A stretch of 63,329 nucleotides of DNA, the filler included, from Reclinomonas americana ATCC 50394 (Eukaryota), in assembly GCA_048213135.1 (NCBI GenBank). It is 12 parts of 12 records of this genome, joined end to end, with 100 filler letters (N's around TTAATTAATTAA, not from the genome) between each part and the next. Parts side by side here need not be neighbours in the genome. Positions count along the whole stretch, not along the records: positions 1 to 14,669 come from AFZH01018470.1; positions 14,770 to 17,249 come from AFZH01018474.1; positions 17,350 to 21,580 come from AFZH01018475.1; positions 21,681 to 24,680 come from AFZH01018476.1; positions 24,781 to 33,053 come from AFZH01018477.1; positions 33,154 to 34,296 come from AFZH01018479.1; positions 34,397 to 44,796 come from AFZH01018480.1; positions 44,897 to 51,064 come from AFZH01018481.1; 4 more parts are not named here. One strand, written 5' to 3'. The first letter of the stretch is position 1; each line of letters opens with the position of its first letter. The position numbers and the translations under genes were made by a program. Below are positions 138-49,851 of the stretch, piece after piece. Below the pieces are notes generated by a model. The model saw nothing but the letters and a program-made list of their open reading frames with translations, was not told the DNA's origin and did no database searches.

Positions 138-1232
138 ATGTCCACCGCTCCCTCTCCCCTCACTCTCCTCCCGTCCAAGCGCATCACCGGTCACACTTTT
201 CTTGTGATGTGTGTCGCCATCACTCCCGATGGTGAGCACATCATCTCTGGGAGTGCAGACACGACAGTGCGCGTGTGGTCTCTGGCGACTGGGGCTGAGA
301 TGCGACGACTGGAGGGACACGCGCTTCAAGTGCACTCTGTCGCCGTCACTCCAAATGGCCAGCACATCGTGAGTGGCAGCTTCGACCGCACGTTGCGAGT
401 GTGGTCACTGGAGAGTGGAGAAGAAGTGCGTCTGTTAAAGGGACACACTGGAGAAGTGGTATCTGTGGCCATCACTCCTGACGGAGATCACTTTGTCAGC
501 GGAAGCAGGGACAACAGCGTGCGTGTGTGGTCACTGGCGAGTGGAGACGAGGTGCGACGAATGGAGGGGCACATTGGCGGAGTGAACTCTGTCGCCGTCA
601 CGTCGGATGGTCTCCACGTTGTCAGCGGAAGCAATGACAACACAGTGCGAGTGTGGTCACTGGAGAATGGTGCCGAAGTGCGACGGCTGGAGGGTCACAA
701 AGGTGGGGCGCTGTCGGTTACCGTTACACCCAATGGTCAGCACATTGTTAGTTGTAGTCACGACAGGACTATGAGAGTATGGTCAATGGCGACTGGCAAA
801 GAAGTGCGACGGTTTGAGGGACGCAATCTTGACACGATTCGCATCTCCATCGCCCCCGACGGTGAGCACGTCGTTAGTGGAGGTAATGTGTTTGATCCGG
901 TTGTGCGAGTGTGGTCGCTGGCAAGTGGAAGAGAGGTGCGACAGCTGGAGGGACACACTGGAGGTGTGCGCTCTGTTGCTGTGTCTCTTGATGGTCGGCA
1001 TGTTGTGAGTGGTGGTTATGACAATACTTTGCGAGTGTGGTCCACTCCCTGCGGCCTCGCTGCTTGTGAGTTGGGCACAGCACGCGAGGCAATGTGGGCC
1101 GTGCAGGAAACAGACGAGAACGACGAGCTGGATTGTTGGTGTTTGGCGGAGATTGTGCTGCGCTGCTTCATCGTGGAGGAGGCGGCGGTGGTGCTGCACC
1201 GGCGCAGCATGGAACCGGAGTCGCACTTGTGA
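138..1232 (+). CDS. WD40-repeat protein (about 7 highly regular repeats) with a conserved C-terminal helical tail; intronless
   Basis: 364-aa ORF with repeated GH...VxSVAVTPDGxHIVSGSxDxTVRVWSL units, then tail TPCGLAACEL...VLRCFIVEEAAV. Confidence 0.93.
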   Translation: MSTAPSPLTLLPSKRITGHTFLVMCVAITPDGEHIISGSADTTVRVWSLATGAEMRRLEGHALQVHSVAVTPNGQHIVSGSFDRTLRVWSLESGEEVRLLKGHTGEVVSVAITPDGDHFVSGSRDNSVRVWSLASGDEVRRMEGHIGGVNSVAVTSDGLHVVSGSNDNTVRVWSLENGAEVRRLEGHKGGALSVTVTPNGQHIVSCSHDRTMRVWSMATGKEVRRFEGRNLDTIRISIAPDGEHVVSGGNVFDPVVRVWSLASGREVRQLEGHTGGVRSVAVSLDGRHVVSGGYDNTLRVWSTPCGLAACELGTAREAMWAVQETDENDELDCWCLAEIVLRCFIVEEAAVVLHRRSMEPESHL

Positions 1233-1690
1233 GAGGAATGAGAGAAGGGGAAAAGAGTTACCTTTTTTTGTTGTGATTCCTCTTCGTGCGCGCAATGCAG
1301 TGAACGTGCTGTGCCGTTCATATACCTGCATTGGAATCGGCACTTTTAGGTGTGGTTTGCAAGAAAGTCCTTGTGCCGCTCGAATTCCATGACTCTGCAC
1401 CCTCGACCGACACTCGTATCCAGTATCGACGTTGCATGGTGAAGTTGGTCATGCTGCTCTATGCTGCGCACGCAGTGCTGCATATATAATCCAATACAAT
1501 TTTACAAAACCGAATGCGTCCCTCCCGGGCCACACATTGTCAACTCCGCAACTCACCGAATCCGTTCCGCGATTTTCTTCAAAGTGCGAGGATCACTCTC
1601 GCTCACACACACACTCTCTGGCACACACACAATAGAGAGCGCAAGAGAGTTTCCGAACACCAACTCCGCACTTCTCACACTTCTCACACC

Positions 1691-2039
1691 ATGGCCGACG
1701 GAGATGAGACGGAGGAGGAGAGATATGCGTGTCGCCAACTCGCCCTCTTTGACAATGGAGTGTGGGAGATTGCTGCGTCGCCAGCAGTGCGCGGGAAAAT
1801 GCAGGTAAGTAAGAGAGAGCAGAGAGAAACGAGAAGTTGTGTGACAGTGAGAGTGATCTCTTGCTCTTCTGGCACGTGTGCGTGTGCGAGGGAGCATGTG
1901 TGAGAGAGTGAGACACACAGAGAGCAACGCAGCGAGAGTCAGTGAATGTGAGCAGAAAGAATGACACAGTCGCTCTCTCTCTTTCTCACTCTCCCCTTCT
2001 CTCCGTTTTTGCTCCTGCTCTCTCACTCTCATTCGCTAT

Positions 2040-2080
<41 letters not shown>

Positions 2081-5000
2081 TCTTCACTCCTCTCCCCTGC
2101 TCTCTGACTCTCTCGTTTGGCTGATACCACTGTTTACGAAACCGAACTCACTGCCTTCACTCTCTTCTCACTCTCCTCTCTCTCACACTCAACCACACAC
2201 TCACACTCACTTGCTCTCTTTCCACCTCTCTCTCCACCTTGCTCTCTCTGTTGCCGATGCCACAGTGCACGAAACCGAACTCACTCACACTGTGGACCCG
2301 CCTTCCTTCTTCTTCTTCTCTCTCTCCTCTCTCTTTCACTCTGTTACACTCACTCACTCTCACTCACTCACCTGCTGTCCTTCTGTCCCTGTCTTGTGCC
2401 TTCTCACTCTCTCGTGTGGCTGAAACCACGCGAAACCCGAACTCAATCTCATTCTGAACCTTCCCCCTCCCTTCATCTCCTCTCTCACACTAGTGCACAC
2501 TCACACTCTCACTCACTCTCCTTCTACGTCTCTCTCCTACTTGCTCTCTCTGACACCGCACTGCGGAAACCGAACTCGGCGCTCGCCCGCCTTCCAACAC
2601 TTATTTTCTCTCTGTACTCAGTCGACAACTCTCACTCACTTGCCCACTTCGTCTCCTTCTTTCCCTGCCAGCTCACTCCGACACCACAGTGCGTGAATCT
2701 CCGTCACTCACTTCCTTCCTCCCTCCCTTCCTCCCTCCCCATCGCTTTCTCCTGCCTTCCGTTCTCCCACTTTTTCTCTCTTTATCTCTCATTCTCTCCT
2801 CCCTCCTTCGTACGCCAGTCTTCCCTTTCCCCTCTCCCTCCCTCCCTTCCTCTCTTTCTCCACACTTGCCCTCCTCATCCACTTCTTTAATCTCTCGCGC
2901 TTTCTTCTCCAAGATCTCCCCCACCTTCCCCCTTACCCCTCCCTTGCCCTTCCTCCCCCTTCCCCCTTCCCCATCCCTTCCTCCCTCCACCCAGTTCATC
3001 GCCTCCGCCGGCATCCACCCCCACGTCACCCTCCTCCACTCCCCCTCCGGCACCCCCGTCGCCACCCTCCGCGGCCACCTCCTCGAAGTCACCGCACTCG
3101 CCTTCTCTCCCGCTTCCTCGTCCCCCACTGTGCTACTGGCCACTGCCGATGGCGGCTGGGATCTTCCGTACTACGCAGTGCACGTGTGGGATCTCACCGC
3201 GCACAGTCGTCGCTGGTGCGCGCAAGGCCACACGGATAACATCAACGCGCTGGCGTTTGTGTGCAACGGAGAGCGCCTGGTCAGCTGTGCCGACGACCAC
3301 ACCGTGCGTGTGTGGGCCGTGGACAGTGGGCGCTGTCTGGGCGTGTTGACCGGGCACACCAAGTCCGTGTATGCGTTGACAGTGTGTGCGGACGATGATC
3401 GGTGGGTGGTCAGTGGCGGCGGTGATTGTGCATTGCGCTGGTGGCGCTGCGATGGTGTTGACGTGGGGGTGGCGGGTGGCGAAGAGCGGCAGGGGAATGC
3501 GTTGACGGATGCGTGTGTGTCGTCGCTGACGAGCAGTCGTCGTCGTCGGTTGTTGGCGTCGGGACACAAGGACGGTGCGGTGCGCTTGTGGCGCGGGCGG
3601 GAAATGGTTCGCGAGTTTCGCGGGCACGAGAATTGGGTGAACAGTGTGGCGTTTGATGATGGGAGCGGGAGGTTTCTTGTGAGCTCGTCGACGGGTGAGT
3701 GGAGGAAGGGGAGGAGGAGGAGGAGGGAGGGGGAGGGGGAAGGGGGAAGAAGGGGAGGGAGAAGAGTGAGAAGTGCGGTGAAAGTGAAGAAGGGGAAGAG
3801 GAGGGGGAAGGAGGGGGTAGGGGAGGGGAAGGGGAGGGAGAAGAATGAGAAGTGCGGTGAAAGTTTGTGTCTTGCACGCAGCAGGTTGCTGCAGCTCTCT
3901 TTGTCAGGTAATGTGCCGTCAGTTGCTTGACCCGTATGATGTCCATTGTTTTCCCTGCGTTGCTTGCTTGGTTTCGTTCTCCTCTCTTTGTTTCTTCTCT
4001 CTGTCTGTCACTTTCTCTTCTCTGTCTTTCTGTCTCTATCTCTCTCTCTCTCTCTCTCTACGTCTCAGACGTCTGTCTGTCTCGACTTCTCTCTTGCCCC
4101 TTCCTTGCGGTGGAGGCCAAGCTTACTCTGCCTCCACCACTGTTTCTCGCTCGGCTCGCTCTCTCGCTCTCTCGCCTTCCCCCTTGCTCCTTCTCAGCGG
4201 CGGAGGCCATGCTTTCTCTGCTTCCATCTCTGTTTCTCACTCCGCTCCCACTCACTCTCCCCACTCTCTGCATAAAGCAACTTGTCCTTTCTCCGCGTTT
4301 ATCCTAATATTTCTATCTTTCTTGTCTTCTCGCTCCCATTCTTTTTCTTCTTCGTACTCTGCCTGTCGTTGGCTATCTGGTGCCTAATCCCCTCTCGTCC
4401 TGTTGGTTTTGGTTCAATCTCTCTCTCTCACTCTCTCTCTCTCTCTCTCTGCTCTGTCTCTCTCAGTCTCTTCTTCTCCCTTGCCCGTTCTCTGCGGCGG
4501 AGGCCAAGCTCTCTCTGCTCCTGCCGCTGTTTCTCGCTCTCTCTCTCCTCTCTCTCTCTCTCTCGCCTTCCTCTTGCTACTTCTCTGCGGTGGAGGCCAA
4601 GCTTCTCTGCTTCCATCTCTGTTTCTCTGTCCGCTCCCGCTCACTCTCCCCACTCTCTGCATAAGCGTTTTGTCCTTCCTCCGTGTTTATTCTCCTTGTT
4701 TCTCTCTTTCTTCTCTTCTCGCTCTCACTCTGTTTTTCCTTGTTCTTTGTGTCAATTCGGCAATCAGTTCCTGATCTTTTCTCATCTTACTGGTTTTGGT
4801 TCAATCTCTCTCTGCTTTTTCTCCCAATCTGTCTCTCTCTCCCTCTTGCTCGCTGCATTAAACCGTCCATCCTTTCGCCCCTTGCTTTCGCTGTGCCAGT
4901 CATCTTGTTCTATTCAGTCAGAAGGTTCCAGTTGCTTCAGTCTCCTTTATCTCTCTTTCTGCAAGTCTTGTCACCCTTCCCCCGCATAACCTCACGCACT

Positions 5001-5664
5001 GTATCATAATCTCGCGGCTCTTCTCTCATCCTCCCTCTCCTCCTCTTCCCCTCCCTCTCCTCACCTTCTCCTTCCTCCTCTCTCCCTCTCCTTCTCTTCC
5101 GCCTCCCTCCCCTCACTTCCCGTTGCATTCTCCTTCGCAGACCGAACTGTCCGCGTATGGCACCTCTCCACAACACACTGCATGGCTGTGCTGCGCGCAC
5201 ACACCGACGAAGTCACCTCTGCCTTGTTCCTCTGCGACGGTTCCATTGCGACCGGCAGTCTCGACCGCACGATTCGTTGTTTCCCCAACGGTATGCAATT
5301 TCACGTCATCTTTTTCCCTATCTCTGCTTCCATCCAACAGTGCACAGGCCCATGGTCACCGCTGTGGTTCCTCGATGCGGAGATGGAAGCGCTGTCGGTC
5401 GCTGTGGCCTGTTTGAAAGAACTGTCGGCCGGTGAAGAAGCAGCGCTACCCCTGCAGGTGCTGCGATGTTTCGTGCTTGAGGATGCGCGAGTCTCGGCAC
5501 ACCACTGTCGTGTCGAGAAGACGCAGCGGGATCTTGATTTCCCACCAGTGCCAGTAGGGGCTGAGGTGGTGACGGTGGGCGAAGATGTTGGCGACGAACT
5601 GGGGGATGCGGAAGGCTGCGAAGTGGAAATGGTGGCGGTGCAGGAGCAGGTTGCGTTGCGGTGA
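1691..5664 (+). CDS. Divergent WD40-repeat protein with the same C-terminal tail; 4 exons (1691-1804, 2995-3694, 5141-5290, 5348-5664)
   Basis: GT-AG splicing restores the WD repeats (GHTDNINALAF..SCADDHTVRVW; GHENWVNSVAF..SSST|DRTVRVW); tail SPLWFLDAEM...VLRCFVLEDARV. Confidence 0.85.
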
Positions 5665-6127
5665 CGTTGACGGTCAGCGCAGTGTGAACAGCACACTGCG
5701 TGCACCATTCGGTGCGCTGAACTGGACCCATGCACGCCGCATTCGAGCTGCAATGGCTGGCGGTGGCACCTGATCTGGTCGACTGTGGAGCTGAGAGATG
5801 CCGCGTTTCGTCGTCCCGTCTCCACGCCTCGGGCTGTCAGCGATTCGTCTTGATAGACTCCTCTGCCGACGACCCACAGTTGCCGCAATGTACCGTTTTA
5901 CAAGGTGGTCTGCATTTTGTCAACTAGTTGAGCGTTGATGGTCTTCGAACATATGCAAGAGCAACTTGCCGTCGCCGACACAACCACCAACTCGGTAATC
6001 TTTCTGTATTCCAATTCCTCTTTCAAGGATTGGATTCAGTCCCACGTTTGTGCACGCGTGGTTCATTTGCAGAAACGCCAGAAGTTAACATGTCGATACG
6101 TCCAGTTCCAGTTGCATTCCCTTTCAC

Positions 6128-9100: not shown

Positions 9101-12100
9101 GCCGACTGGCGTGTTGAAAAGAGCCGCTGTGCCGGTGGCATCTGTCGTACCGGTTGCCGCGGTGAGCGAGCCAGCCAGAGTCGACGCAGTCATCGCCAGC
9201 GTGTCGATTGCACGAACATTGTGTCTGGATCTGTCAACTGCATATCTCAATGGTGTGAGTACACGTCCCTCGTCGACAGCACATTGCAAAGACGCACATA
9301 TATGCACATACACACACCGACGTACAGCTGACTCGCCGTTGAATCCAATGCAAAGCTATTCGGCGCACCAAACCTTGCTGTTGTTGCACAAGGTCCATCG
9401 ACTGTGCCCGATGACCCAATCGTGCCGCAGTAGGTCGTGACCTCGCCGCCGTATGTGACCTGCGGGGATGATGGCATCTCAGCAGAGCGCCGCACAAGTA
9501 CAGAAGTCGTTCGGAACATGCATCCACGCACTTTTTTGACGACTTTGTTCAACGTGTCGCCAACGTATATGACTTTGTTAAACGAGTCCACCACAATGCC
9601 GTAAGGACTATTGAACCTCGCGCTTGATCCAGTGCCATTGGCAATGCCAAAAACTCCGTTGCCAGCCAATGTAGAGACAGAGCCAGAAGGCGTGCTCATG
9701 CGAACAGCATGATTGCTTTGCTGTAAAGCCTTGGGTGTAAGACACACAGAGCACATTTTTTCGCCCGCAAAATCACTCTCTTAATGGTAGTAGAATCGTC
9801 ACGCAACATCAGCGATGTACAAATACCCCGTGGTCAGGTCGATCGATAAGCCAGTGGGCAATTTAAATCGTGCAGCAGAGCCGATTCCGTCAACAAAGCC
9901 GTTGGCTCCAGCAGTCCCCAGAAAAGTCGACGTCACACCTCCACTCGTCACCCGCCGGATAGTTTGGTTTTGTTGGTCGCAGACGAATGCAGTTCCCGAC
10001 GCGTCAAATGCAATTCCCTGTATCGCAACACATAAGGGAGAAGGCGTGCACCTTGTAAAAGGCAAATGAAAGACACACGTTTGGCCTGTTGAATTGAGCA
10101 GCATTCCCCGTGCCATCCGTCGTACCAGACACGCCCGCCGTGCCCAACCACGTTGACACTGCCGGCGTTACACTGAGTGCAGCCGCCGACGGCGCCCACT
10201 CAAACGAGTTGCTCATTGTCGAGGCCGCCACAGAATTGCCCACCACAGCATTCAAAGTCACAGACGATGTTGTCACACTGCTGGCCGCTAGCGTGGCCAG
10301 TGACTGCGTGGCTGTGACACGCCAACATAGAGAGAGAATCATGTTGAGTGACGAGCACAAGATAGAGAGGGGGAGGGAGAGGAAGAGGGGGACGGCGAGG
10401 GGACAAAGAGGGGGGAGGAGGGACAAGGAAGAAAGAAGAGAGAAAGAGGAGGAGGAGGAGGAGGAGGAGGAGGAGGAGGAGGAGGAGGAGGAGGAGGAGA
10501 AGGAGGAGGAGAAGGAGGAGAAGGAGAAGAAGAGGAGGAGGAGAAGGAGGAGGAGAAGGAGGAGGAGAAGGAGGAGGAGAAAGAAGAAGAAGAACAAGAA
10601 CAAGAACGAGAAGAATAGACAAAGGAGAAGGAGAAGAAGGAAATGAAGAGAAGTCACACAATCACAGACAAACAGAGTGAGATCACAACGAGGACGACAG
10701 ACACACGCAAAGGCTGACCATCATGCAGCCTCCAACCGTCTCACCTGTAGTGATGGCGAACGCCTTGTCGAAGAACAGCGGCGGCGTTCCATTGTCCGTC
10801 GACCGGATCGTCACCGCCAGCGAGCTGCCCGCCTGCCCTGCGGCCACAATCACCAGCGACTGCCCGCTGATCGAGAAAACCGCACTATTGGCGCCCCCGA
10901 CAATCGAGTACGTGAACGACTGGCCCGCATTCGTGTCGGTGGTCTGCAGCGCACAAACGACTTGATTCGCCACCGACGGCGACACATACGTTGTCGACGA
11001 GCACGTAATGTCGGTCGGCGCCACATTCGTGGTGGTGGTGAACGACACGGTGGCGCCATTGATGGTGCTGGGCGTGGAGGTGACGCCGACGGCGCGATAG
11101 TAGTACGTCCAGTTGCTCACCAATCCAGTCAACGAGGCGGTGATTGAAGCGGCCAGGGAGCCAGTGGAGGTGGCGGATGTGGCCGACACCGATTGAGATG
11201 CTAGGGAGAGGCGACGGATGATATGCGTGGTGTAATCGGCAACCAGCACGGACGCCGTTGATGCATCGAAGGCCAGATGGACAGGCGAGTTGAACCGTGC
11301 CAAGGTCAGAGCGCTGCCGTTGGCTGATCCGCTCACGCCCGCCGCACCGCCAATCGTTGTCACAGACGAGTCTGACACTCGAAGTTGCCGCACGGTGTTG
11401 TTGACGGACTGCGTCGGACACAAGGCATTGAGAACCAAGAAGCGAAACTTTCGGAGTGTGGTGGGAAGGTACTCAACATCGGCAACATAGATGACGTTGC
11501 TTCCCGAGTCGTATGTCAGTCCGATCGGCGTGTTGAAGCGGGCAGCCGTTCCTGGTGTGCATCGATCAGCACGCAAGCAAAGGATGAGCACATTGCGATG
11601 AACTCACCGGTGGCATCCGTGGATCCTGATGTACCGCTCGTTGAACCCGCCACCGTCGTCACCGTCATCGCCACCGTATCAATGGCCCGTATGGAGTTGT
11701 TCACACGGTCGACTGCACCCACGCAAAACCAAGCAGAAGGCGCAGATGAGGATGGGATGAAGGGCATCGTCTTTCCCGCACACTCTCACCAACATACAGC
11801 GTGGTTCCGACAAGCAGCACGCCATTGGGACCTCCGAATCGCGCCGCTCCCGCACACGCACCATCGGCGGTGCCACTCATGCCAGTAGAGCCACAAAAGG
11901 TCGTCACCGCGCCGGCATAGGTCACTCGCCGGATAGTGTTGTTGAGCCAGTCGCCCACATACACCACTTGGTTCGTGGCATCCACCGCGATGCCCATCGG
12001 CTGATTGAACGAGGCGGCTGCACCCGAGGCATTGGCACTCCCCGACGCCCCGTTTCCCGCCAGTGTGGTGACCACGGCTGCTGAGGTGACAGCGCGAATC

Positions 12101-13152
12101 GCGTGGTTCGTCAACTGTGTGTGTGAGAGAGAGAGAGAGAGAGAAAGAGGCAGAGAGAGAGAGAGAAAGAGGCAGAGTCAACAAAATGCAACACGAGCAT
12201 GATCAAGAAAGCAAGCATGCAAGAACACACTCACATCGGCGACATACATAGTTCCCGTGGTTTGGTCGATGGCGAGACCGGCAACACTGTGAGCGCGTGT
12301 GAGTGAGAGAAGAGAGAGGAGGGAGAGAAGAGGGAGAGAGAGAGAGAGAGAAAGAAAGAAACAGCAAGAACGCACTTTTTGAACTGAGCTGCCACTCCTG
12401 TCGCATCCACCAGGCCGCATGTGGTGCCAGCAAAGGTGGTCACTGTGGCTGCGGGCGTGATGCGTCGAATGCGACAGTTGCTGCCATCATCGAGTGCGCG
12501 CACGCGAGTGAGAAGAAGTGACGAATCAACAACAATCGACAGACAACGAGGGAAGAGTGCATGCACGACAAACCCGTAGTCGCCCACATACACGTTGCCC
12601 ATGGCATCGAAGGCCAGTCCCTGTCGAGAGAGCACGCACACTCAATGTCAGCGAAAGTGCACGACATGCTACAGAGGGTACAACATAGTACTGTCGTGCA
12701 CAAACCATTGGCGTGCTCAACAATGCACTTGCTCCAATGCCATTAGTCGTTCCCGACGTGCCTGCTGTGCCCGCAAAGGTGGAGACAGTGGAGGAAACGC
12801 CCAGAGTGGTAGAGTAGGGCGACCACTCAAAGTAGTTGGTGGTGCCTCCCGCGACATTGTTGGGATTGATCCATGCATTGAGGGAGGCGGACGAGCCAGT
12901 GATGTTGGTGGCCACAGCGGTGGTCACCGTCTGGGCGTCTGTGGTGGAGGTGTGTAAGCAACGAGTGAAAACACAAGGCGGCCGCGGGCATGTAACGGGT
13001 TCGTGCAGCGTGCGCGCGCGCGCGCAGCGCTGCGCTCACACAACACGTATACGCGCATTTTGACGTACGCAACTCGCACGGACAGCCAGAGAGAGGACGA
13101 CAAGAAGACACAAGACGGTGACTCGAGAGTGGGAGTGTGGAAAGACGAGCAT
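6128..13152 (-). CDS. Large secreted multidomain protein: signal peptide, 2x (Fn3-like domain with inserted NHL beta-propeller + cadherin-like domain), further cadherin-like/Ig-like domains, two PAN/apple-like domains; about 20 introns
   Basis: Signal peptide MLVFPHSHSRVTVLCLLVVLSLAVRA(N)AQ; NHL repeats TxAGxxGxxDGxGxxARFNxPxGI..YVADxxNxxIRR; cadherin-like NxAPTDI...TxDxDxGQSFTYS..GG...VxIRSxDNGxP; Cys-rich PAN motif CSLWCSQLTACGSWTF...C; no transmembrane segment seen. Confidence 0.85.
10441..10645. repeat. Intronic (GAG)n/(GAA)n trinucleotide tract
   Basis: Visible directly; produces spurious polyE/polyS/polyL ORFs. Confidence 0.95.
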
Positions 13153-13244
13153 TCTATCTGTGCGCACAAGTAAATTTTATAGAACTCGAATACGAAACGG
13201 TAAAAACTCTTGATCTGGGCGCGAAAATTCACTAAACTCAAATT

Positions 13245-13720
13245 AATCTTCAACCCCGACCTGCAGTCACCACTTGACGCACACGCCGTCACCATCGACA
13301 TTGCCACCATGCCGCTCTTCGGCACAAACTGCTTTGTCTACGCGGTGACGACCCGAAATTTAAAGCGGACAACTGCGAATTCGCGATCGCGATTGAATTC
13401 GAACACCCGCAGCGCAGCGAGCATGTGCATGTGCTTGTGCTCCGGTTGTAGTCTTGACGACCCACGTGAGATTGCCACCAGGCTGATCTGCAAGCCCTGA
13501 ATCACTTCACGATCAATCATGCGATTCTCTCATTTCAAGATCACCACATTGCATGCGCATGCGCAACACGAGATGTTCGCTTTCCGCTGTGCTGGTGGCA
13601 ATCAGGCTCAAACCAGAACCAAGCAAACAATCTCCCACCCGCAGCAGCTGCGCCGCCCGCAGTCTCAGGGTAACTAGTACCATCGCGTCGCTACTGCAGC
13701 ACCATGCTTCAACGAGTTCA
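13245..13720 (-). pseudogene. Decayed copy of the 3' (PAN/apple) end of the NHL/cadherin gene
   Basis: 13245-13500 aligns by eye with 6130-6350 (TKQFVPKSGMVAMSMVTACASSGDCRSGLKI vs TKQCVPKSGVVATSTATACATSGDCTSGLKI), with an in-frame TAG and an insertion. Confidence 0.8.
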
Positions 13721-14322
13721 GCGTTTACGCAAGCCGCTGGCGTAGACACTATGCATATGCATATGTGCGCCACGAAATCCCCTCGATCGCGAGGCCAACA
13801 CGCGTTTGATTGGCCTTTGCCTCCTGCAAGGGAAGATGACAGTTGGAGAAGATTATCTATGTGTAACTCACCGCGGAATGCGAGTGGAGTGGGAGTGAGG
13901 GTGGCGCAGCCGAGGAATGCAATACTGCGCACATACGTTTGTACTTTACATGTACATGAGTTCGATTTCATCGCGAACACGCACGCAGAAGAGACTGCAG
14001 CTGGCCTCAAGATTGGTGATTGTGTGGTAAGTGCTGTGCGTGCTGCTGGTTCTTGTTCGTCAAGACAGCTGCTGTTCAGGTTTGCTTGTTCATTGCTGAA
14101 CGATTTTGAAGTTGCACTGCGGTCATTGGATCTCGTGCGTTGAATGCGTATACGTTGCCGCTTTCGACGTACGCGTACAATGCACGGTCTGTGTCTCTAT
14201 CACAGATCGCACTTGTACGGCTGTCCTGTTGAGTCAGTCATCAACCGATTTCACTCATGCATTTGCGAACTCACCACACACTTCTCCTCCTTCCCATCCT
14301 CCTCGTCACCACTGTGTGCGTG

Positions 14323-14571
14323 ATGGCAAGCAGTCATCGCCACCGCGACAGAGACAGAGACATGATCGCAGTGTCAGCCAGTGGGCAAGAGGTCGACAGT
14401 GATGACAATGAGGAGAGTGCAGAGGAGGCATTTGCGCGGGATTCTGCGGCACTGGTGACAGAGGAGTACGATGACTCACCGCGGAATGCGAGTGGAGTGG
14501 GAGTGGGAGTGGCGGGAGGAGGCGCGCAGGCGAGGGCGTATGCGCGGTCGGTGGAGGTGTCGATGAGGGTG
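14323..14571 (+). CDS. First exon of a hypothetical protein (acidic/low-complexity N-terminus); remainder lost in gap
   Basis: ATG at 14323, coding-like composition, G|GTGAGT donor at 14572. Confidence 0.5.
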
Positions 14572-14669
14572 GTGAGTGGAAGGGAGAGAGGAGAGAGGAG
14601 AGGAGAGGGAGAGGAGAAGTGAGTGTGTGTGTGTTGTCTTTCTCTTTCTCTCACTCTCTCTCTCTCTCT

Positions 14670-17201: not shown

Positions 17202-17249
<48 letters not shown>

Positions 17250-17426: not shown

Positions 17427-17500
<74 letters not shown>

Positions 17501-18923: not shown

Positions 18924-19940
18924 TTACTCGAACACCACCGGCTGCGCCAGACACCGATACAAAACAACTTCCGCCTCCTCGACAAGGAAACACCGCAGCA
19001 CAGTCTCCGCAAGACAGCGGCGATCCGCTTCCGCCAGCATCTCCTGGACGGACCACGTCGCTCGGCGTGCCACCTCGAGCTCGTCACGAGCCAGGCCACG
19101 AGGTGTGCACCATGCACGCACCGTGTCGTCGCCACTGCCACTCACGATGTGCTCACCATCGCGAGTAACGGCGACACACCACACCACCTCTTCGTGCCCC
19201 TCTAGCCGTTGCACTTCCTCGCCACTCGTCAGCGACCACACGCGCACCGTCGAGTCATCACTGCCACTGACAATGTGCTCACCATCGGGAAGGACGGCGA
19301 CAGATCGCACCGTGCCAGTATGCTCTTTCAACCGTCTCACTTCTTCTCCAGTGCTCAAGGACCACACTTGCAAGGCCTTGCCAGCCACAATCACCACATG
19401 CCGCCCGTCGGGAGTGACGGCCACAGACCACACCGCACCAGCAAGCCCCCCCAACAGTCGCACCTGCTTTCCACTCGCCATGGACCACACACGCACGAGC
19501 TTGTCATCGCCGCCACTCACAACGTGCTGACCATCAGGAGTCATGGCGACACTCCACACCCACCCATTGTGCCGCTCGAACAGTCGCACCTCCTCGCCAC
19601 TCGCCAGCGACCACACCCGCACCGTGTTGTCATTGCTGCCACTCACAATGAACTGACCATCGCGACTGACGGCGACAGCCCGCACCCACCACGTGTGTCC
19701 CTTCAATCGTCGCACCTCCTCCCCAGTCGCCAGCGACCACACTCGCACTGTGTGGTCATCGCCTCCACCCACCACATGCTGACTGTCGGGAGCGACGGCG
19801 ACGCACATGACTACCTCGTGTCCCTTCCATTGTCGCACCTCGTTCCCGCTCGCCAGTGACAACACTCGCAAGGTGTTTTTGTCGGCAATCACAACGTGCT
19901 GGCCGTCGGGAGTGACGGCGAATTCACGCCTAACCACGCA
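18924..19940 (-). CDS. WD40-repeat protein, paralogue of 138-1232, with C-terminal tail; 5' end uncertain or frameshifted
   Basis: About 7 WD repeats closely similar to the first gene; tail TPRGLARDEL...VLRCFLVEEAEV. Confidence 0.88.
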   Translation of the reverse strand, partial: CVVRREFAVTPDGQHVVIADKNTLRVLSLASGNEVRQWKGHEVVMCVAVAPDSQHVVGGGDDHTVRVWSLATGEEVRRLKGHTWWVRAVAVSRDGQFIVSGSNDNTVRVWSLASGEEVRLFERHNGWVWSVAMTPDGQHVVSGGDDKLVRVWSMASGKQVRLLGGLAGAVWSVAVTPDGRHVVIVAGKALQVWSLSTGEEVRRLKEHTGTVRSVAVLPDGEHIVSGSDDSTVRVWSLTSGEEVQRLEGHEEVVWCVAVTRDGEHIVSGSGDDTVRAWCTPRGLARDELEVARRATWSVQEMLAEADRRCLAETVLRCFLVEEAEVVLYRCLAQPVVFE

Positions 19941-20088
19941 GTGGAGGCAGTTGCGAAGGAAGAACGGGGGTGAGGGAGGCATATGTGACAGAGAGGGGAG
20001 AGAGGGAGAGAGGGAGACAAGCAGTCAGAAGACAGACACACAGCGAGAGAGAATGTGTTGTGTGTTGTGTGTTGTGTGTTGTGTGTTG

Positions 20089-20126
<38 letters not shown>

Positions 20127-20672
20127 TGTGTGTGTGTGTGTGTGTGTGTAGGGTTACCCGCCACCAAGGCGAAATCGCAGGCCGATTGGAGACTTACCTT
20201 CATTTTTGTCACACACGAGAGATGGTGAGTGGTGCGGCGTTTCGCGGCACTTGTGTGCTGGAGAGGCGGTGGCGGTGGATTAGAGAACGGTGCCTTTTCC
20301 TTCTGTCTTTGAGGGAGGCGTGGGAGGGGAGTGAAAGGAAGTGTGTGTTGTGCATGTCATGCGCATGCATGGCGCTGACTTTGTTGCGCCCCCTTCCCTC
20401 GCTCCCTCTCTACCGCTTTCCCTCGTATGTGTGTGTGCTGTCTTAGGTCAGTGACTGTTTCTGCCGTGAGTGAGAGTGCGGGTGAATGAGCGTGACGAGT
20501 AGACAAAAAGTGTGTCATGTGCATGGTCAGCACGCACGCACACACGCACACACGCACAACAGAGCAGGCTTATCTGTGAGGCAACTCACGTGATCTGCTA
20601 CCACCACTTGAGCAAGCACGCCTTGCTGTCTCTCCTCTCTTCTTGTGTCTCTTGTGCTTGTTGGTTAGCGAC

Positions 20673-21507: not shown

Positions 21508-21544
21508 CCATTCAAACTCCTTCTTCTCCCCTTCCCCCCCCACT

Positions 21545-41134: not shown

Positions 41135-43910
41135 GCATGACAGATAAAATGTGGGACACGCGCACCCACTCAGTGACAGAGGGAATGTGTGAGAGAGAGA
41201 GAGAGAGCGGAACGGGGAGGATCAGATAATCTCGTTCACCCTCCTATTGCATGAAGAGTGCATTTCAAGGATGATGGGTGAATCGAGAGGGTGTGCGTAC
41301 ATGCTCTCCTGGCAATATCTCAAACGGTTGGGTGCGTCTCTCAGTCTGTGTGGACCACGAACACATCTTGCATCTTCTTCTCTTTCTCTCACTTCTCCAT
41401 TCACGCCAAGCTTCTTTGTTCTTCTGACTTACCATTTTTCTTCTGGCCTCTCTATCCACTACTCTGCTTCCTTTTCCCCCTACCCTTCCATTCTCTCCAT
41501 CCTCCTATCACATGTGTGGGTCGGCCTCAGAGCTTGCCTCCTCTTTCTCTCTTTCTCACTTCTCCTTGTAACCTCATTCTGTCGTTCATCGATCTCACCA
41601 TTTCTCTTTCTTCTGCTTCGTCTCCTACTCTTTCCACCACTCTGCTTCCCATTTTCCCCCTACCTTTACTCTTTCTCCGTCCTTCAGTCACTGGTTTCAG
41701 TCCTCTTCCTCGCAACTTGCTTTCCCTTCTCCTCTTCCCTCTCTCATCCCCCTGTCTCCTTCACCTCTCTGCACACTTCTCTTCACACCTCCTTTGTCTC
41801 AGTCTCACTGTACTCTCTCTCTCGCGCCCCTCTTCCCTTTACCCCTGTCCCCCCTTCGCCCCTCTTGCTCACCATCATACACCGCTCCACTCGCATAGAT
41901 AAACACGCCATGCCCATGCCGCATGTCATCGCGAAATTGTCCCGTGTACTTGCCGCCACCCATCGGATACCGAAACTCGCCACGCTGCAGGTGATCCAGT
42001 CGGAAACTGCCGTCAAACACACACCCGTTGCTCATCTCCAGCCGCCCACGACCGTGCCTCTGGTCCTCGGCCCACGTGCCCGTGTACACACTGCAGTCGC
42101 TGTAGTGGCAGCTGCCTTCGCCGTGCCGCTTGTCGTGCGCCCACATGCCTGGCGGGGGCGGTGAGTGGGGGGAGGGACAAGAAGAGAGGGCGGCGGTTAC
42201 CTTCGTATCGTGCTCCGTCCGTGTAGTAATGCGTCCCCCTTCCGTGTCGCATGTTGTGGTAAAATTCGCCCACGTAGATCTGGAGGAAAGGAGGGTGAGT
42301 GAATGTGTAACGCGCTTTCGTCCTTCACCTTTGTCGAACCTGCCCATTCGCATACTCGAATCGCCCCTCCGCAATCTCGTCCTTGATAAAGGTGCCAGAG
42401 AACTTGGAACCCTTTGTGGTCACAAAGGAGCCCATGCCGTGCCGCTGGTCGTTGCGCCAGTCGCCTGTCGCGAAGTTGGATGAGTACGTGACGAGGTGGG
42501 TGAGAGGATCGACAAGCGACTCACCAATGTATGTTCCATGCGGTCCAGTCAGTGTGCCGTGTCCGTTTCTCATACCGTGTGCAAACTCGCCCTCTGCAAT
42601 GATCGAGAGAAGGAGAGTGATGTGAGAGATAGAGGGAGAGAAACAGGGACAAGAGCCCACATCTCTTCTTCAATTCTGTCTCGTCATCTCACTATCCTCA
42701 GCAAGACAGAGGACGAGCATTACAACTCTCAGCAAGAAAGGACTGAGCGCCAGCATGAGCTCACATCTCCTCCTGTCTCTCAGTCTCACCCACTCTCGGG
42801 GTGCATCGCATATCCTCCTCCTCAACCCGCGCCTTTCCCTCTTGCGCCCACACAGAATGAACAAGGAGGCATCAATCAGCGACCTCTTCTCAGTCTCTCT
42901 TAACCTCGTTCGCACTCTCAGCCTGACTCTCCGCCTTGAACCCTTTCAGAATGAACACGCATTGCACGGCGCTTTCATCCCTCTCCCCCTCCCAGCAAGA
43001 AGGACACAGCTTCGAATGAATGCACAACTCTTGTGAATCCCTGTCTCCCTGACTCACGGAGCATCACACTTCGCTCACAAATCTCTCCCCTCAGCCTGCG
43101 CCTTTCCCACTCTCGCCCCTTCGAGGAAAGATAGAGGACGAAAGAGCAACGTAAAATCATCACTCTTGTTCAACAAAGTCACTCCGCATTGCGCTCTCAC
43201 AGCAAGACAAATAGCACGCATCACAAGGTGTTCTTATCCCTCTCCAGCAAGAAAGGACTGAGCTGCAACTTGAGGCCATCTGCCTGCCTCTCTACCCTGT
43301 CAACGAACACGCATTACAAGGTGTTCTCCAGCAAGAATAGACTGAGCTGCTACATGAGCCCACCTCCCCTCCTCAGCCCGTCTCTCAGTCTCAGGCAAGG
43401 CGGTGAACACGCAATCTTATCTCTCTCCCTCCCTCCCCGCAAGGTGGAGAAGAAACCAATTACTGAGCCCACAAGTCCGTCTAGTTTGGCACTATCTCAC
43501 TTCCCAGCATCGCACACTCGCCAAGGCTAGGCACCCTTCACTCCCACCCTTCCCACAAGTCCGTCTCCTTTCTCTTCTATCGACAGCCTTCCCTCTCTTC
43601 TCCTCCCACCCTTCCCTCTCCTTCTCACCATATGCAGATCCATCGGGAAAGTGCAGCACGCCATGATACACTGTCGACGCCTCCAAATCCGCCTCCAGCA
43701 ACTGTCGCTGTGGCGACATGCGCCTCGGCGATTGTCGCTGTTGCAATAACTGTTGATCGGCGTCGAGCTCAGCGCGTTCTCGGAGCTGGGAGAGAAGAGG
43801 AGAAGAGTGAGGACTGCTTCGATATTATCGACATCTGAGTGAGGAGAGAGAGAGGGACGAGGAGGCAGAGAGGAGAGGGCTTTCTTCAATATCTTGGCTG
43901 CTGATTGTGA
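40168..43910 (-). CDS. MORN-repeat protein; multi-exon, 5' end uncertain (possibly beyond the gap, near 45140)
   Basis: More than 10 YxGxWxxDxRHGxG repeats across exons. Confidence 0.9.
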
Positions 43911-44615
43911 TCCGAGGGAGTGAGAGAGAGAGAGAGGCAGAGGGAGAGCGCGCGTGAGGACAGTCAGAGAATGCCTGAGTGACAGAGAGAAAGACCTGAG
44001 CGATCTGCTGAGAAAAGATGAGAAGATCAAGAACACCACGACTCGCCTCTCTCCCACACTGACTCCTGCTGAGGCACTAGAGGGACCTCTCCTCTCACAC
44101 ACTCTCCTCTTCCTCCTCTCTCTCTCTCTCTCTCTCTCTCCCTCTCTCTCTCTCTGTTTCTTTTCAGTCCCTTCCACTCCATTCTCATCTGTTTCATCCT
44201 TCTCTCAATACTCCACGCGCTGTTCCTCTTTCCATCTTCTCTCTGGTTTTCTTCAACCCCTTCCAACATTCTCATCCGTCTCACCTCCCTCTCAACACTC
44301 CATCTGCTGTGTTCATCTTCCCCTCTTTCTCTCTCTTTCTTTCAATCCGTTGCACTGCATTCTCATCTGTCTCACCTCCCTCTCAACGCTCCATGTGCTG
44401 TGTTTTCTGTAACTTGTCCGCCTTGTACTCTCACATCCCTGATCTCCTCTTCTCTCTGTTCCCCCGCGACATCCATGCAGCATCTTCTCGCTCTCTCTCT
44501 CTCTCTTTCTCTCTCTCCTCATTCCGTACCTCTGATCTTTCACTCTCCTATCCATACCTGTACCATTCTTCCGACTTGTCCGTTGCCACCTCGTCTTCTG
44601 TCCTAATCCTTTGTC

Positions 44616-44710
<95 letters not shown>

Positions 44711-45546
44711 CGTACTACTCGTACTCTCGTACGTACTACGTACGTACGTACGTACGTACGTCGTACGTCCGTACGTACGTACCGTACCGTACGTACNNNN
44801 NNNNNNNNNNNNNNNNNNNNNNNNNNNNNNNNNNNNNNNNTTAATTAATTAANNNNNNNNNNNNNNNNNNNNNNNNNNNNNNNNNNNNNNNNNNNNCCCG
44901 AACCGTACCGTCCGTCCTTCCTCCCCTACCCACTACGTACCTCCGTCTCGTGGACGACTACGTAGGACGTACTCCTCTCCACACCTCTCCTCCTTCCTCC
45001 TCTCTCTCTCTCTCTCTCTCTCCCCACGTCTCTCTTCTCACTCTCTCTCTCTCTCTCCCCTTCCTGCGCAACATGGCGAGTGGCATCGATGGACGAGTAC
45101 ACCAACCCGGGCGTGGGTGTGGTCACTTGGTCGGCCAGCATCCGCGAAGAGACAGCGTGAGTGAGTGAGAGTGTGTTCGACGTTGGGTGAGAGGCGTTGT
45201 GGGACTCGGCGACGTCGATGATGAATGAGGGTCCACTGCGTTGATTGTCGCTCGCTTTGTAGTAGCAAGTAGTTGGTAGAGCCAGTGCCTTTGTTTGCTT
45301 GCAGTGGAGCTTGCCAGCAACGTCGCTCTCGATTGTGTTCGGAAACTGCACCGGTTTTCGATATCTCCAGCTCCAACGACGTTGTCTTGGTCGCCCAAGT
45401 CCAAACCATGTTGAAACCGTCAACACAAGCACAGTCCTTGAAGGCAATAGGTTTCCTTGTGTCGAACCAGTCGAGAACTGACACGCTTGCAATTGGAAAT
45501 TTGTCGCAATATCGAAAAGTGGTATGAAGTGTTTTTCTTTCTTTTG

Positions 45547-45800
45547 TCGGCAACAACAACAAATTCATTCCCCAACCAACAAGCAACAGCTGTCCTGATG
45601 ACCAAGTTCAACCGTATCCAAAACATCAACACAGGCAGCAGCAGGTTCCTTGTGTGTGTGTGTGTTCGCGCGCTCTCGGAGCTCCGAACAAGTCGAGAAC
45701 TGCGATCTTCACCGCAAAAGCGTGGTTGACCAGTGGATTTGACGCACTTGCATAGACGCATAGCGTTTTCTGCGATCGCACACGGCACATCGAATTCGGG
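45547..45800 (+). mobile_element. Dispersed repeat family, near full-length copy
   Basis: Colinear high identity with 39835-40092 and 60298-60463. Confidence 0.75.
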
Positions 45801-46243
45801 AAAAGGCCAAAAGCCAGGCAAACAAAGCAAAGCAGGGTCCGGATCCGTGAAGCAGGCAGAGCAAAAGCAGTGGAGGTGTCGTACGTTGGTGGCGTGGTTG
45901 AAACAGGAGAGAGCTTGTCATGTTGTTGGTGAGGCTCATATCGGTGGTGGCTGGTGGTGGGCGCAGTTGTTGTTGTTGTCATTGTCGACACTGTGACACC
46001 CACTGACCGGTGGCCACACAGTGAGAAACAAGAGGACTGAGGGTTGAAGACGACGTTGACCACAGACACAATGTTGTTGTTGTTGTTCGTCATTATGTTA
46101 TGTACAGTGATGGCGGTGGAGGGGAAGAACGTGGAAGACATGCTGGTTGCGTGAAAGCAGAGCCAGAGTCAGCATTTGACACTCGATATGTGCATACGAT
46201 ATGCTTGCAAGCGTTTATTCAACGAAGCAAGCCCTGTCGCTCA

Positions 46244-47259
46244 CTACTGTGGAGTCAGCAGCTTGTATGTCTTGGCCCACTGCAACGGCGATGTGAGCAG
46301 ACAAGTGCGTGTGTCTTAAAAATTCGCTGCCGTATCAATATTAGTACCTGTCCGCGCAGGAAGCCTGTCGTGCACCACAACCGGCAGAGCGCCTCCAAAG
46401 CACGTCCCGACTCGGCAAAGCCGGCGTCTTCGGCCACATAGCCGCCCTGCCGTTGCGCAGAAGTGAGTGGCCACGGTTTCGTGCATACCGATATCGAAAT
46501 CGTTGATATCGATCTCACTTACCGCCTTGACGAGCTCTGCCACCACCTCCTTGGCACCGGCATCGTTTCCAGCAATGAACATGGTGGCAGGGCCACCGGG
46601 GAACGCATTGCCCTTGTCAAACATGCCGGCGCCCACCGTGTTGAAGGCCTTGACGAAGCGAATGCGCGGGTACGTCTCCTGCAGCACCTCCAGCAGGCTC
46701 TTGTTGATGTCAGTGAAGTAGTTGAAGACGCCGTTCTCGAGTGGAGCGTCCGCAATCGGGTTAGTCTGCGCGCGTCGCGAGAGAAAGGCAGTGAGCCGGC
46801 GAAGCATCGATGTATCGGGACTCAACACTCAGCGCAGCGCAACAGCATCAATGACAATCTTGTCGCCAATCAGCTCAGCCAGAGGCTCCACAGCAGCAAC
46901 TGCAGCCGTGCCCTTCACAGCCAGCAGGACCACATCAGCCGACTGCACAGCGTCGGCATTGGTGGCCGTCTTGATGCCAATCGAGGAGGCAAAGTCGGCC
47001 AATTTCTCCGGTTCGCGACTGTGGGTGCAGCAGAGCGCGGATCGTTATTTTCTGTGCATCGCGTTGTGCGTGTGTGCGTATACCTGGCAATGGTCACGTC
47101 ATAGCCACCGCTCTTGAAGACGGAAGCGAGGGCCTGCAGGTGCAGCACTGTTAGTCACCGCAGCGCGCGTGCAGAGAGCGCAAGTGCGCGCGACAGACAT
47201 GCCTTGGCCACATCACCAGAGCCGATGATGGCGAGGCTCTTGACAGCAGAAGCAGACAT
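46244..47259 (-). CDS. NADP oxidoreductase, F420-dependent/dinucleotide-binding family; 6 exons
   Basis: Spliced LAIIGSGDVAK|ALASVF..IA|SREP..ADVVLLAVK..KIVIDA|TNPI..VKAFNTVG..MFIAGND..ALEALCRLWC. Confidence 0.9.
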
Positions 47260-47705
47260 GGGGTCAGTGTGTGTAAAAGGAGATCCGGAGGTGATGAGCT
47301 TCGCTCAAGAGACAACAATGATGCAAAGATGCTATTTTGTCTTTCTCTCGGGTCGCCCTCTCTCGGAAGTTGGCTCCGAACTTGCGAGCAGTGTACATGT
47401 TCTCTCTTATGACCCCGTACGACTGTTGCGAGCTGCCCGATAAGCAGTTGGCCATGCATGGTCGGCAAAAGGGGTAGAAGAATTACAAAGACGTGCACGT
47501 TATTCAACAGCCAAGATGCTAGCGCTATTTGTCTTTCTTCAGGTCGCCCTCTGGAGGCTGTACGGGGGATATGGCATACCCGCATTCCCCACTTCCCGTT
47601 GGTTGTTTGCAGGGATTGCTGTAACAGAAGAACCCGACAGCTTCATGATAACTCCATTAATATTGACAGACGCACAATGTCGGTGTGTTGTACGTATTGT
47701 TTGTT

Positions 47706-47707
47706 TG

Positions 47708-47778
<71 letters not shown>

Positions 47779-47905
47779 CGCTCTCGGAGCTTCGAACAAC
47801 TGCAAGTCGAGAACTGCGATCTTCGAATTCACCGCACAAGCCTGCAACAGTGCATTTGGCGCATTTGCTTGGAGGCGCAGCGTTTTCTGCGATCATACAC
47901 GGTAC
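47706..47905 (+). mobile_element. Dispersed repeat family, 3' half copy preceded by an expanded (GT)n
   Basis: GTTCGCTCTCGGAGCTTCGAACAA..GTCGAGAACTGCGATCTTC..GCGTTTTCTGCGATC. Confidence 0.7.
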
Positions 47906-48289
47906 ATCCACGGGAAACGACAAATTCGACGCAAGAGAGCAGTGGAGAGAAAGCGTAAAAGTGATAATCCGAAGAGCAACGTGGATCAATTGAGAGAAAC
48001 GAGAGACCTCTGAGACAGCCCGCCACACAACGGTCTCCATCTGTAGTAGATGGAGCTCGCCCAAAGTCCCCTCAGATCACCAACCCCTCCACCCTTATGC
48101 CGACGACGGCGTTCAACATTCATCCATTACCCCTCATTCTCCATCGAAATCCTTGACCATTCTCATTACCCTCTCATCTTTTCCCTCAGCATAGCACTTC
48201 ACCCTTCCCCGTAACCCCTTCCCCCCTTCCCCCCTTCTCCACCCTTCCCCCCTACCCCTTCCACCCTTTCCCTCTACCTTCCCTTTCCT

Positions 48290-49851
48290 TCACTCCCCCT
48301 CCACCAACCTCTCCTCTAACACCTCCGCACACAACCGCAACCTCGCCAACCTACTATTCTCATACACCACCCACAACGCCGCCACCACACACTCCACATT
48401 CGCCAGCGTCGCCTCCGACAACTCCGCCTCCCGCTCCACCATCTCGTCCTCCAACGCCATGGCCACGGTCGACAACTGCAGCAACTCCATGCGCAGCACC
48501 TGCACCGGCACGCAGTGCGACACAGAGTCGATCTCGTAGGCCACGCCGAATCTGGCCAGCGTCGACGACGCCGTTACCTCCTCCTCGTCCTCCTCCTCCC
48601 CATCTCGCCTTGCTGGCTGCAGCATCACGTGCGACAAGCGCGGGCAGTCGGTGTGCGGCAGCAGCACGGCGGCCGAGCCACGACGCGGACGCAAAACGAA
48701 TCGTCCATAGTGGTTCGTGTGGCCCACAACGTCGGCCGTGAACTGCGCCGTGTGCGTGAAGCAGCGAATCGTGCTGTGGCTAAGCATCTGCGCCTGCACC
48801 AGAGTGCACTCCACCTGCACGTGCAGACGGAGGGCGCGATCCGGCGGCTTGCGCTGCCACGACTCGCACACGACCGTGCCGGGCGCCACCATGTGCGGCG
48901 ACAGCCGACTGCACTGCACCACCACCAGCTCGTTGGCCTCGGCGAAATCCTCCACCGCGCGCCCACAATGCAACGAGTACAGGCTGCTGATCTGCACGTC
49001 GACGTTGCTCGGCGTCAGCATATACGTGCGTCCACGCACCATTTGCCCGGCCACGACCAGGCACACCAGCCACGTGACGCCCAGGCCCAGCTGCTGCTGC
49101 TGTGACTGCGCCACTGCATATACACACGCACGCAGTGGTTGCTCATGCTCCTCTTCTCCTCCTCCCACCTGCAGCTGTCGTCGTGCCAACACCGGCGTCC
49201 ACTCCAAGGCCGCCAGCAACGCCTGCCGCTCGTCCGCCCACACCAATGCCGTCTGCCGGAACCCGAACCGTTGCAGCGCACGAAACAGGTCACTAAAGTC
49301 GACCGCTGACTCCACCGCCGGTCGCGTCCACTGCGGACGACCACCGCTGTCACCAATCGCAAAGACCACACTGGTGCAGCCAAAGCCGGCGGCCTCGCGC
49401 AACATGCGGATCAGCTCCTCGTTGGTGGAGACGCTGTGGCGGTGCTCCCAGCTCACAGGCACCAGCAGCACGTTGGCGAGGAAGCAAAAGACGCGTCGCA
49501 TCTGGGCGTCGTCGGGACGAGTGATAAAGAGCGCTGTGCGAGAGTGTGGAAGGCGCTGTGGTACGGCCCAGGCGGGAAGCTCGCGGGTGATGGTGCTGGC
49601 ATCGTCCTCTGCTTCTGCTTCTTCTTCTGCTTGTGGTGCGAGGAGGAGGAGGGAGCGGATGCGGTCGATGAGTGCGGACGCGAGAGGGTCGGCGGTGGGA
49701 GGAGGTGTGAGGATGGTGATGGTGAGGGGAGGGCAGGAGGAGGTGGAGGTGGAGGAGGTGTCGATGGGCTGTGCGTGGAGAAGAGAGTGAGAGGGGAGAG
49801 GGGAAGAGAGAGAAGGCGGTGCGTGTGAACCTTTCTCGATGTGTTTCCCAT
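48290..49851 (-). CDS. Highly divergent eEF1A/EF-Tu-fold protein with degenerate G domain and C-terminal helical tail; exons 49851-49831 and 49768-48290
   Basis: Domain II PLRACVYAV..GLGV..VVAGQM..MLTPSN..VAPGTVVCES; domain III PPDRA..VQV..THTAQF..DCPRLSHVML..TLARFGVAYEID colinear with eEF1A; no P-loop; starts MGNTSRK. Confidence 0.7.

Follow-up and report, generated by a model that had tools for sequence, protein, structure and literature searches.

A local cluster of WD40 propeller genes with a shared C-terminal helical tail in Reclinomonas americana

The WD40 genes and their C-terminal tails

The stretch of DNA analysed here, hereafter called the window, comprises 63,329 nucleotides from Reclinomonas americana ATCC 50394 (GCA_048213135.1). 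It was joined from 12 records, and distances measured along it need not equal distances in the genome. Three WD40 genes were located in the window: WD40-A and WD40-C on record AFZH01018470.1, and WD40-B on AFZH01018475.1. In each of the encoded proteins (A, B and C) a tail of approximately 60 residues starts straight after the last WD40 blade, and this C-terminal tail is the main subject of the analysis. The genes and tails are listed below, with the evidence for each in brackets; the structure predictions were made with AlphaFold2 (AF2), and profile searches used hidden Markov models (HMMs).

138-1232, plus strand: WD40-A gene, a single exon encoding 364 amino acids (P0001), seven-bladed propeller and tail (Pfam, AF2)
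1044-1229, plus strand: tail A, TPCGL...VLRCFIVEEAAV...SHL, helix-linker-helix (translation, alignment)
1691-1804, 2995-3694, 5141-5290 and 5348-5664, plus strand: exons of the WD40-C gene, predicted to encode 426 amino acids (GT..AG junctions, reading frame)
5350-5547, plus strand: tail C, with its VLRCF core from 5458 (motif, HMM)
18924-19982, minus strand: WD40-B gene, a single exon encoding 352 amino acids (P0002), a paralogue of A (Pfam, identity to A)
18927-19106, minus strand: tail B, TPRGL...VLRCFLVEEAEV (translation, alignment)

WD40-A and WD40-B are complete single-exon genes. The Pfam WD40 family (PF00400) was matched by A at an E value of 3e-71, over seven stretches, by B at 4.9e-59 and by two exons of C at 2.4e-29 and 1.5e-7. 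When A was modelled alone by AF2, residues 13-302 formed a seven-bladed propeller with a predicted local distance difference test (pLDDT) score above 90, and Foldseek comparison of this propeller with WDR5 and 5yzv gave E values of about 1e-29. Repeated units and a closed propeller, as expected of a WD40 beta-propeller, were thus found by Pfam, AF2 and Foldseek. The propeller's best structural matches included the WRAP-derived design 7big, WDR5 and 5yzv, a Thermomonospora WD40 protein at 36% identity.

The 42-residue blades were very alike within each protein, with a mean pairwise identity of 65% in A (four full units) and 74% in B (two units). Differences between blades in A and B were gathered at approximately ten positions of the consensus LASG.EVR.LEGH.G.V.SVAVT.DG.H.VSGS.DNT.RVWS. 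Such similarity is typical of propellers that were amplified recently or that diversify for recognition. High internal blade conservation is likewise found in WRAP-type and fungal HET-E/NWD-type propellers. Those propellers usually lie C-terminal to nucleoside triphosphatase (NTPase) or kinase domains; in contrast, A and B consist of the propeller alone, with the helical tail.

The third gene had been described in an earlier note on this DNA as a WD40 gene spanning 1691-5664. The gene itself was confirmed as real; it is not continuous, being cut by predicted introns of 1190, 1446 and 57 nucleotides, all with GT..AG boundaries. The sequence at 1805, 2994, 3695, 5140, 5291 and 5347 shows them to be canonical spliceosomal introns, whose donors are GTAAGT, GTGAGT or GTATGC and whose CAG acceptors accompany pyrimidine tracts; the source is thus an intron-bearing eukaryote. 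Splicing by this model preserves the reading frame and rebuilds a perfect WD40 junction (…LVSSST|DRTVRVW…). No other short intron would leave the tail in frame, and with the 57-nucleotide intron C has an insertion of only four residues relative to the other members of the family.

The two long introns (1805-2994 and 3695-5140) are of low complexity, CT- or GA-rich, and contain nested tandem repeats with periods of 79, 90, 93 and 389 nucleotides; two copies of the 389-nucleotide unit lie at 4029-4813. Spurious long open reading frames (ORFs) inside these introns could pass for coding sequence.

All three proteins share the motif VLRCF[IVL][VL]E[ED]A. In a six-frame set of 103,585 residues, drawn from ORFs of at least 30 amino acids, the string VLRCF occurred three times, only in tails A, B and C, and at each of these sites it lay approximately 20 residues from the end of the WD40 protein. 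In the aligned tail pieces 15-25 residues follow LRCF, with the modelled C ORF extending further. A BLASTP comparison of tail A with tail C gave an E value of 1e-4 over 15 residues. When an HMM built from tails A and B was searched against 1279 ORFs, C ranked first after the two training tails (E 9.7e-4), and a second HMM, from the five family tails that remain when C is left out, found C at E 1.3e-5. The starts given for tails A and B in the earlier note were off by one or two codons.

No tail was matched at any Pfam cut-off, and no PDB sequence match was obtained; the tail profile gave one chance match among PDB sequences, at E 0.98. This agrees with the earlier description of the tail as a conserved, unnamed module. 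By these comparisons, the three WD40 genes do share a homologous, unnamed C-terminal tail, with predicted helices.

The relationship extends beyond the tail. A and B shared 53% identity across 356 columns (E 3e-112), an alignment that extended through the tail, and the spliced model of C could be aligned collinearly with A at 26% identity (E 7e-24) and with B at 31% (E 1.5e-25), starting in the first blades and continuing into the tail. Because A and B are whole-length paralogues and C is collinear with both, the tail was inherited together with the propeller and not moved between folds. WD40-A and WD40-C lie 459 nucleotides apart on the same strand, and WD40-B is 13 kb off in the window on the opposite strand.

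Relatives of the tail and a fourth candidate protein

An exhaustive hmmsearch with the three-tail profile was carried out on 1,835,955,588 representative proteins at a threshold of E ≤0.001. Three further carriers were found:

P0006, 116 amino acids: tail match E 1.9e-19, from a EukProt entry derived from expressed sequence tags (ESTs) and labelled Reclinomonas americana
P0007, 381 amino acids: tail match E 6.5e-5, from a Logan assembly
P0008, 394 amino acids: tail match E 1.3e-4, from a Logan assembly

In each of these proteins the match took up the final 60-70 residues and came immediately after propeller sequence of WD40- or PQQ-like type. All six carriers, three from the window and three from the 1.84 billion proteins, are therefore beta-propeller proteins that end in the tail. 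Since P0006 comes from an EST-derived entry, a tail-bearing gene is transcribed. The nearest outside sequence to the family is labelled Reclinomonas americana, a jakobid.

A match that includes the LRCF..E core was found in A, B, C, P0006, P0007 and P0008. Helix 1 of the family has the consensus (S/T)P-x-G-L-A-R-x-E-L-x2-A-R and helix 2, which is very hydrophobic, the consensus C-L-(P/A)-E-x-V-L-R-C-F-[ILV]-V-E-[ED]-A. Invariant in the six tails are E10, L35, L40-R41-C42-F43 and E46, in the numbering of tail A. A variable linker of 10-20 residues separates the helices, and its net character is acidic in four of the six tails, neutral in B and basic in P0008.

Further searches for relatives were negative. 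The profile of all six tails, designated A2, returned only P0007 and P0008, which it already contained, in a word-index search of longer proteins, and tail A gave no match in the word-index search. None of the pattern matches to A2 was confirmed on metagenome contigs (164 matches), prokaryote genome contigs (5) or viral contigs (4), and the ESM Atlas returned no usable match to tail A. A literature search for the strings LRCFIVEE, LRCFLVEE, LRCFLVED, LRCFVLED and LRCFIKED found them in no paper, and the family was absent from the titles and abstracts listed for jakobid nuclear genome plus WD40 and for Reclinomonas plus WD40. As far as these searches reach, the tail belongs to a small family that is confined to a handful of sequences from protists. 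The A2 profile could be used to annotate such proteins once protist proteomes exist.

Protein A ends in Ser-His-Leu (1227-1229), which we take to resemble a type 1 peroxisomal targeting signal (PTS1). This ending is found in one of the six tails, and PTS1 was rejected as a feature of the family because the other five end differently.

A fourth protein had been counted with A, B and C as a carrier of the same tail on a different fold, and had been labelled an eEF1A-derived pseudo-GTPase. Its features are:

48290-50128, minus strand: ORF encoding P0003, 612 codons from stop to stop and 541 amino acids from the first Met, an orphan with a provisional 5' end and possibly further exons upstream
48293-48511, minus strand: C-terminal helices of P0003, outside the tail family (BLASTP, HMM, hhalign)

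The shared tail was upheld for A, B and C and not for this protein. Two BLASTP comparisons with the P0003 tail gave E values of 1.6 and 0.054, in registers that were inconsistent with each other. The HMM of the three WD40 tails failed on the P0003 ORF (E 19, 1.5 bits), which is the first part of the outcome that the earlier note had named beforehand as speaking against its own claim. The A2 profile gave E 0.35 (6.9 bits), and hhalign of the P0003 tail with the family returned a probability of 0.4% and an E value of 0.14. The P0003 tail has no LRCF..E core, the part of helix 2 that is invariant in the family. Based on these results P0003 is judged not to be a tail carrier.

It could be argued that all four tails are copies of one portable module and that the copy in P0003 has diverged past sequence detection. 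Its tail lies directly after the last beta-rich region, the segment P-VQ-V-LRM-E-L fits the helix-1 pattern of five of the six family tails, and an acidic stretch and further helices come next. The A2 profile also placed the helix-1 piece, the only part that aligned, in the right register (5.0 bits, conditional E 0.0087). All four tails do conform to the pattern itself, P-x2-[LFV]-x3-E-[LM], as the earlier note had said; however, it was drawn up post hoc and has eight matches in the six-frame translation of the window, four of them elsewhere. In addition to the absence of significance in any whole search, of the helix 2 core and of a consistent BLASTP register, AF2 predicted three helices in this tail, not two, and no non-propeller carrier was found among the 1.84 billion proteins. 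We consider this explanation very improbable.

The nature of P0003 is a separate matter. Neither the whole protein nor its two pieces gave a Pfam, NCBIfam or PDB sequence match, and a word-index search with residues 180-612 found no match. The AF2 secondary structure, from a poor model (pLDDT 40), runs from an alpha/beta region through a beta-rich region to three C-terminal helices. Comparison of ESM features provided a lead only: the ten best named clusters were all of the EF-Tu family (GTP_EFTU_D2, eEFSec and eIF2-gamma), with values of 0.87-0.91. By our own reading of the sequence, no GxxxxGK[ST] follows the first predicted strand, TITILTPPPT. The order of secondary structure and the missing motif would both suit a degenerate EF-Tu-like protein. 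P0003 is possibly a degenerate, P-loop-less relative of the EF-Tu-like translational GTPases; the label of eEF1A-derived pseudo-GTPase is no more than a plausible suggestion and has no bearing on the tail family.

The proposals that had been built on four carriers are affected accordingly. Domain shuffling, with the tail serving many kinds of sensor, is not borne out by a set in which every carrier is a beta-propeller, in which A and B are paralogues over their whole length and in which C is collinear through the tail. The suggestion that four carriers in 63 kb imply many in the genome also lapses, because the carriers form a local cluster of three linked paralogues, a count that is uninformative on genome-wide numbers. 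The result is mainly corrective: an apparent four-fold modular system becomes a small, tandemly clustered WD40 family with its own C-terminal extension, together with a chance look-alike.

Possible role of the tail

The reading that we favour, and consider fairly probable, is that the window contains a local cluster of three paralogous seven-bladed WD40 genes with an inherited tail of approximately 60 residues, for which a docking role is proposed. In this proposal the tail would be a docking element through which ligand-binding propellers of variable sequence are tied to a single shared partner. It would work much as the SOCS box does at the C-terminus of WSB1, but it does not belong to the SOCS-box family. 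The docking role itself is put forward tentatively, as a possibility somewhat short of an even chance; it is suggested because the blades diverge, helix 2 is nearly fixed and this helix appears too hydrophobic for exposure to solvent. Tail identity was equal to or higher than propeller identity in eight of ten pairs of carriers (e.g. 40% compared to 22% for B and P0007, and 35% compared to 18% for C and P0008), which fits a docking role. Conservation of the tail in most pairs, together with the extreme hydrophobicity of helix 2, suggests that the tail is functionally constrained.

Several points weigh against this reading. In every BLASTP and HMM test the similarity of C was confined to helix 2, and helix 1 of C was linked to the family by a loose pattern alone. 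The exon structure of WD40-C is a predicted model. In two pairs the tail was less conserved than the propeller (25% compared to 32% for A and C, and 29% compared to 32% for B and C). In the AF2 model of A the tail (residues 309-364, with helices at 315-323 and 334-355) had a pLDDT below 50, so that its predicted fold is of low confidence. The family picture is thin, since only six carriers are known; these were drawn from the window and from protein representatives, and carriers that are not propellers may exist. Finally, no sequence link from the tail to any adaptor-binding box is apparent: the BC box, the Cul5 box motif LP-phi-P and the F-box signature LPxE (LP.E[LIVM]..) were each found in none of the six tails, an invariant Glu occupying the position in the BC box where C, S or A is due.

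The same properties could be explained by a structural or self-association element, in which the helix pair would pack back against the propeller, at its side or bottom, or would form an oligomerising helical bundle. In coronins, a C-terminal extension and coiled coil oligomerise the protein. Helix 2 (V-L-R-C-F-I-V-E-E-A-A-V-V) has the extremely hydrophobic character of a buried core helix, the tail is contiguous with the last blade and protein-terminal in six of six carriers, and its strict co-inheritance with the propeller suits an intramolecular role. However, AF2 did not place the tail on the propeller confidently (pLDDT <50), and the variable linker, with a tail that is often more conserved than the propeller (the eight of ten pairs), is better accommodated by an external partner. 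Prediction of a complex of two tail copies gave a score of 0.01 (mark 0.32); it was made without an alignment and with an uncertain fold, and speaks neither for nor against self-association. A structural role of this kind is regarded as somewhat unlikely.

The tail was also compared with the boxes by which known receptors bind cullin ligases. If it were a divergent VHL-box, SOCS-box or F-box-like receptor box, the WD40 proteins would be substrate receptors like WSB1; an adaptor, either Elongin C or one of Skp1 type, would be bound by helix 1, with LP-x2-V-x3-F serving as the cullin box. The architecture is in agreement with such a role. In PMC3355856, WSB1 and WSB2 are described as receptors of Elongin BC-Cul5 ligases that consist of a WD40 domain followed by a SOCS box, and there, as in the tail family, a short helical box ends the protein behind a propeller, the recognition domain varying and the box being conserved. 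The tail family differs from that portrayal of WSB1 and WSB2 in its variable 10-20-residue linker and in its invariant LRCF..E helix, which falls outside the SOCS-box consensus of PMC4878042 and PMC3355856, as well as in the lack of the BC box, the Cul5 box and a Pfam SOCS_box match.

Individual motifs were considered in turn. The BC box consensus is given as (S,T,P)Lxxx(C,S,A)xxx-phi in PMC4878042, and the opening of helix 1, with (S/T)P and L-x3-x spacing, is reminiscent of it in spite of the missing matches noted above. For the Cul2 box, PMC3355856 (also the source of the Cul5 box motif) gives phi-P-x2-phi-x3-phi, located 8-23 residues after the BC box and most often with Leu first. This consensus, which also characterises the VHL box of receptors of cullin-RING ligase 2 (CRL2), fits three of the six tails in a degenerate form (LPLQVLRCF, LPEMVLRCF and LPEMILRCF), each with Leu first. 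Unlike a VHL box, these segments are preceded by no BC box, and they follow the helix-1 motif by approximately 20-30 residues, which reaches or exceeds the published range of 8-23. A, B and P0008 lack the Pro. The Cul2 pattern carries little weight because it has 182 matches among the 103,585 six-frame residues.

The F-box was considered in the same way. F-box/WD40 proteins such as FBXW7, beta-TrCP and Cdc4/SEL-10 resemble the tail family in combining a WD40 propeller with a short helical box, and the hydrophobic pattern of L-P-E-M-V-L-R-C-F-I (LP...VL..F) presumably resembles that of F-box helix 1. In those proteins the F-box precedes the propeller and consists of three helices, approximately 45 residues in all; in contrast, the box of the tail family is C-terminal, and the 15-25 residues past its core in the aligned pieces leave no room for the second and third F-box helices, with the proviso that the modelled C ORF is longer. 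The Pfam models SOCS_box, VHL, F-box, F-box-like and PRANC gave no match even at E ≤10 when the four tails of the earlier note and the six family tails were searched by hmmscan, and the only matches at that level were below the cut-off: DUF7353 (0.03), DUF3632 (0.07), Flavi_propep (0.09) and FHA (0.31). The earlier statement that the tail lacks the BC-box and F-box consensus was correct. By their defining sequence features the tail is not a member of the SOCS, VHL, F-box or PRANC families, and its identification as a divergent receptor box is improbable.

The jakobid WD40 proteins Gcp1-3 (Horvathova et al. 2021, PMC8134430) were also considered. As described there, they are Pex7-like, occur in jakobids, heteroloboseans and malawimonads, and resemble the tail family in being lineage-restricted WD40 paralogues, some of which have C-terminal signals. 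They were rejected as the tail family because they are Pex7-like and because the strings VLRCF, ILRCF, LRCFI and LRCFL were absent from six supplementary files of PMC8134430, the portion of the source that this negative covers.

A more far-reaching form of the docking proposal, which we consider quite improbable, is that the LRCF tail is a new adaptor-binding box restricted to Discoba. Such a box would be parallel to the SOCS, VHL and F-boxes and unrelated to them in sequence, would join locally amplifying propellers, with blades that differ at a few positions, to one hub such as a ubiquitin ligase or another effector, and might have P0003 as a very remote extra carrier. If this were true, the proteins would represent a protist recognition system analogous to the WSB/ASB receptors or to the diversifying WD40 sensors of fungi and bacteria. 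Were the tail a docking box at all, it would constitute an undescribed connection from receptor to hub in jakobid-like protists, a deep and little-studied lineage, and would add a fourth sequence class of recognition domain plus short helical box to SOCS, VHL and F-box.

Other features of the window

The G+C content of the window is approximately 51-57%, and the number of N is 968. Low-complexity CT-rich stretches and (CA)n runs are present. For the other genes, 362 ORFs of at least 90 amino acids were reduced to 205 by filtering for complexity; among the 150 longest of these, 81 were picked by hand and scanned against Pfam, a set without the ORFs that overlapped A, B, C or P0003. No further WD40 ORF was found among the 81. 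The following exon-sized ORFs gave Pfam matches:

11704-12177, minus strand: arylesterase-like segment
15378-16525, minus strand: uDENN/DENN match
30481-31596, minus strand: ankyrin repeats
40809-42419, minus strand: MORN repeats
52478-53270, plus strand: protein kinase domain, over two ORFs

Two ORFs in overlapping frames at 25466-27428 on the plus strand matched the middle and C-terminal parts of the CD36 family, with E values of 8e-15 and 2e-28; presumably they represent one gene divided by an intron or a frame change.

Runs of N at approximately 51060-51170 and 53630-53730, and elsewhere, were read as assembly gaps. These runs are bordered by long homopolymer-codon repeats and by (CA)n/(GT)n microsatellites, for example at approximately 20090-20150, 47700-47800 and 50900-51000.

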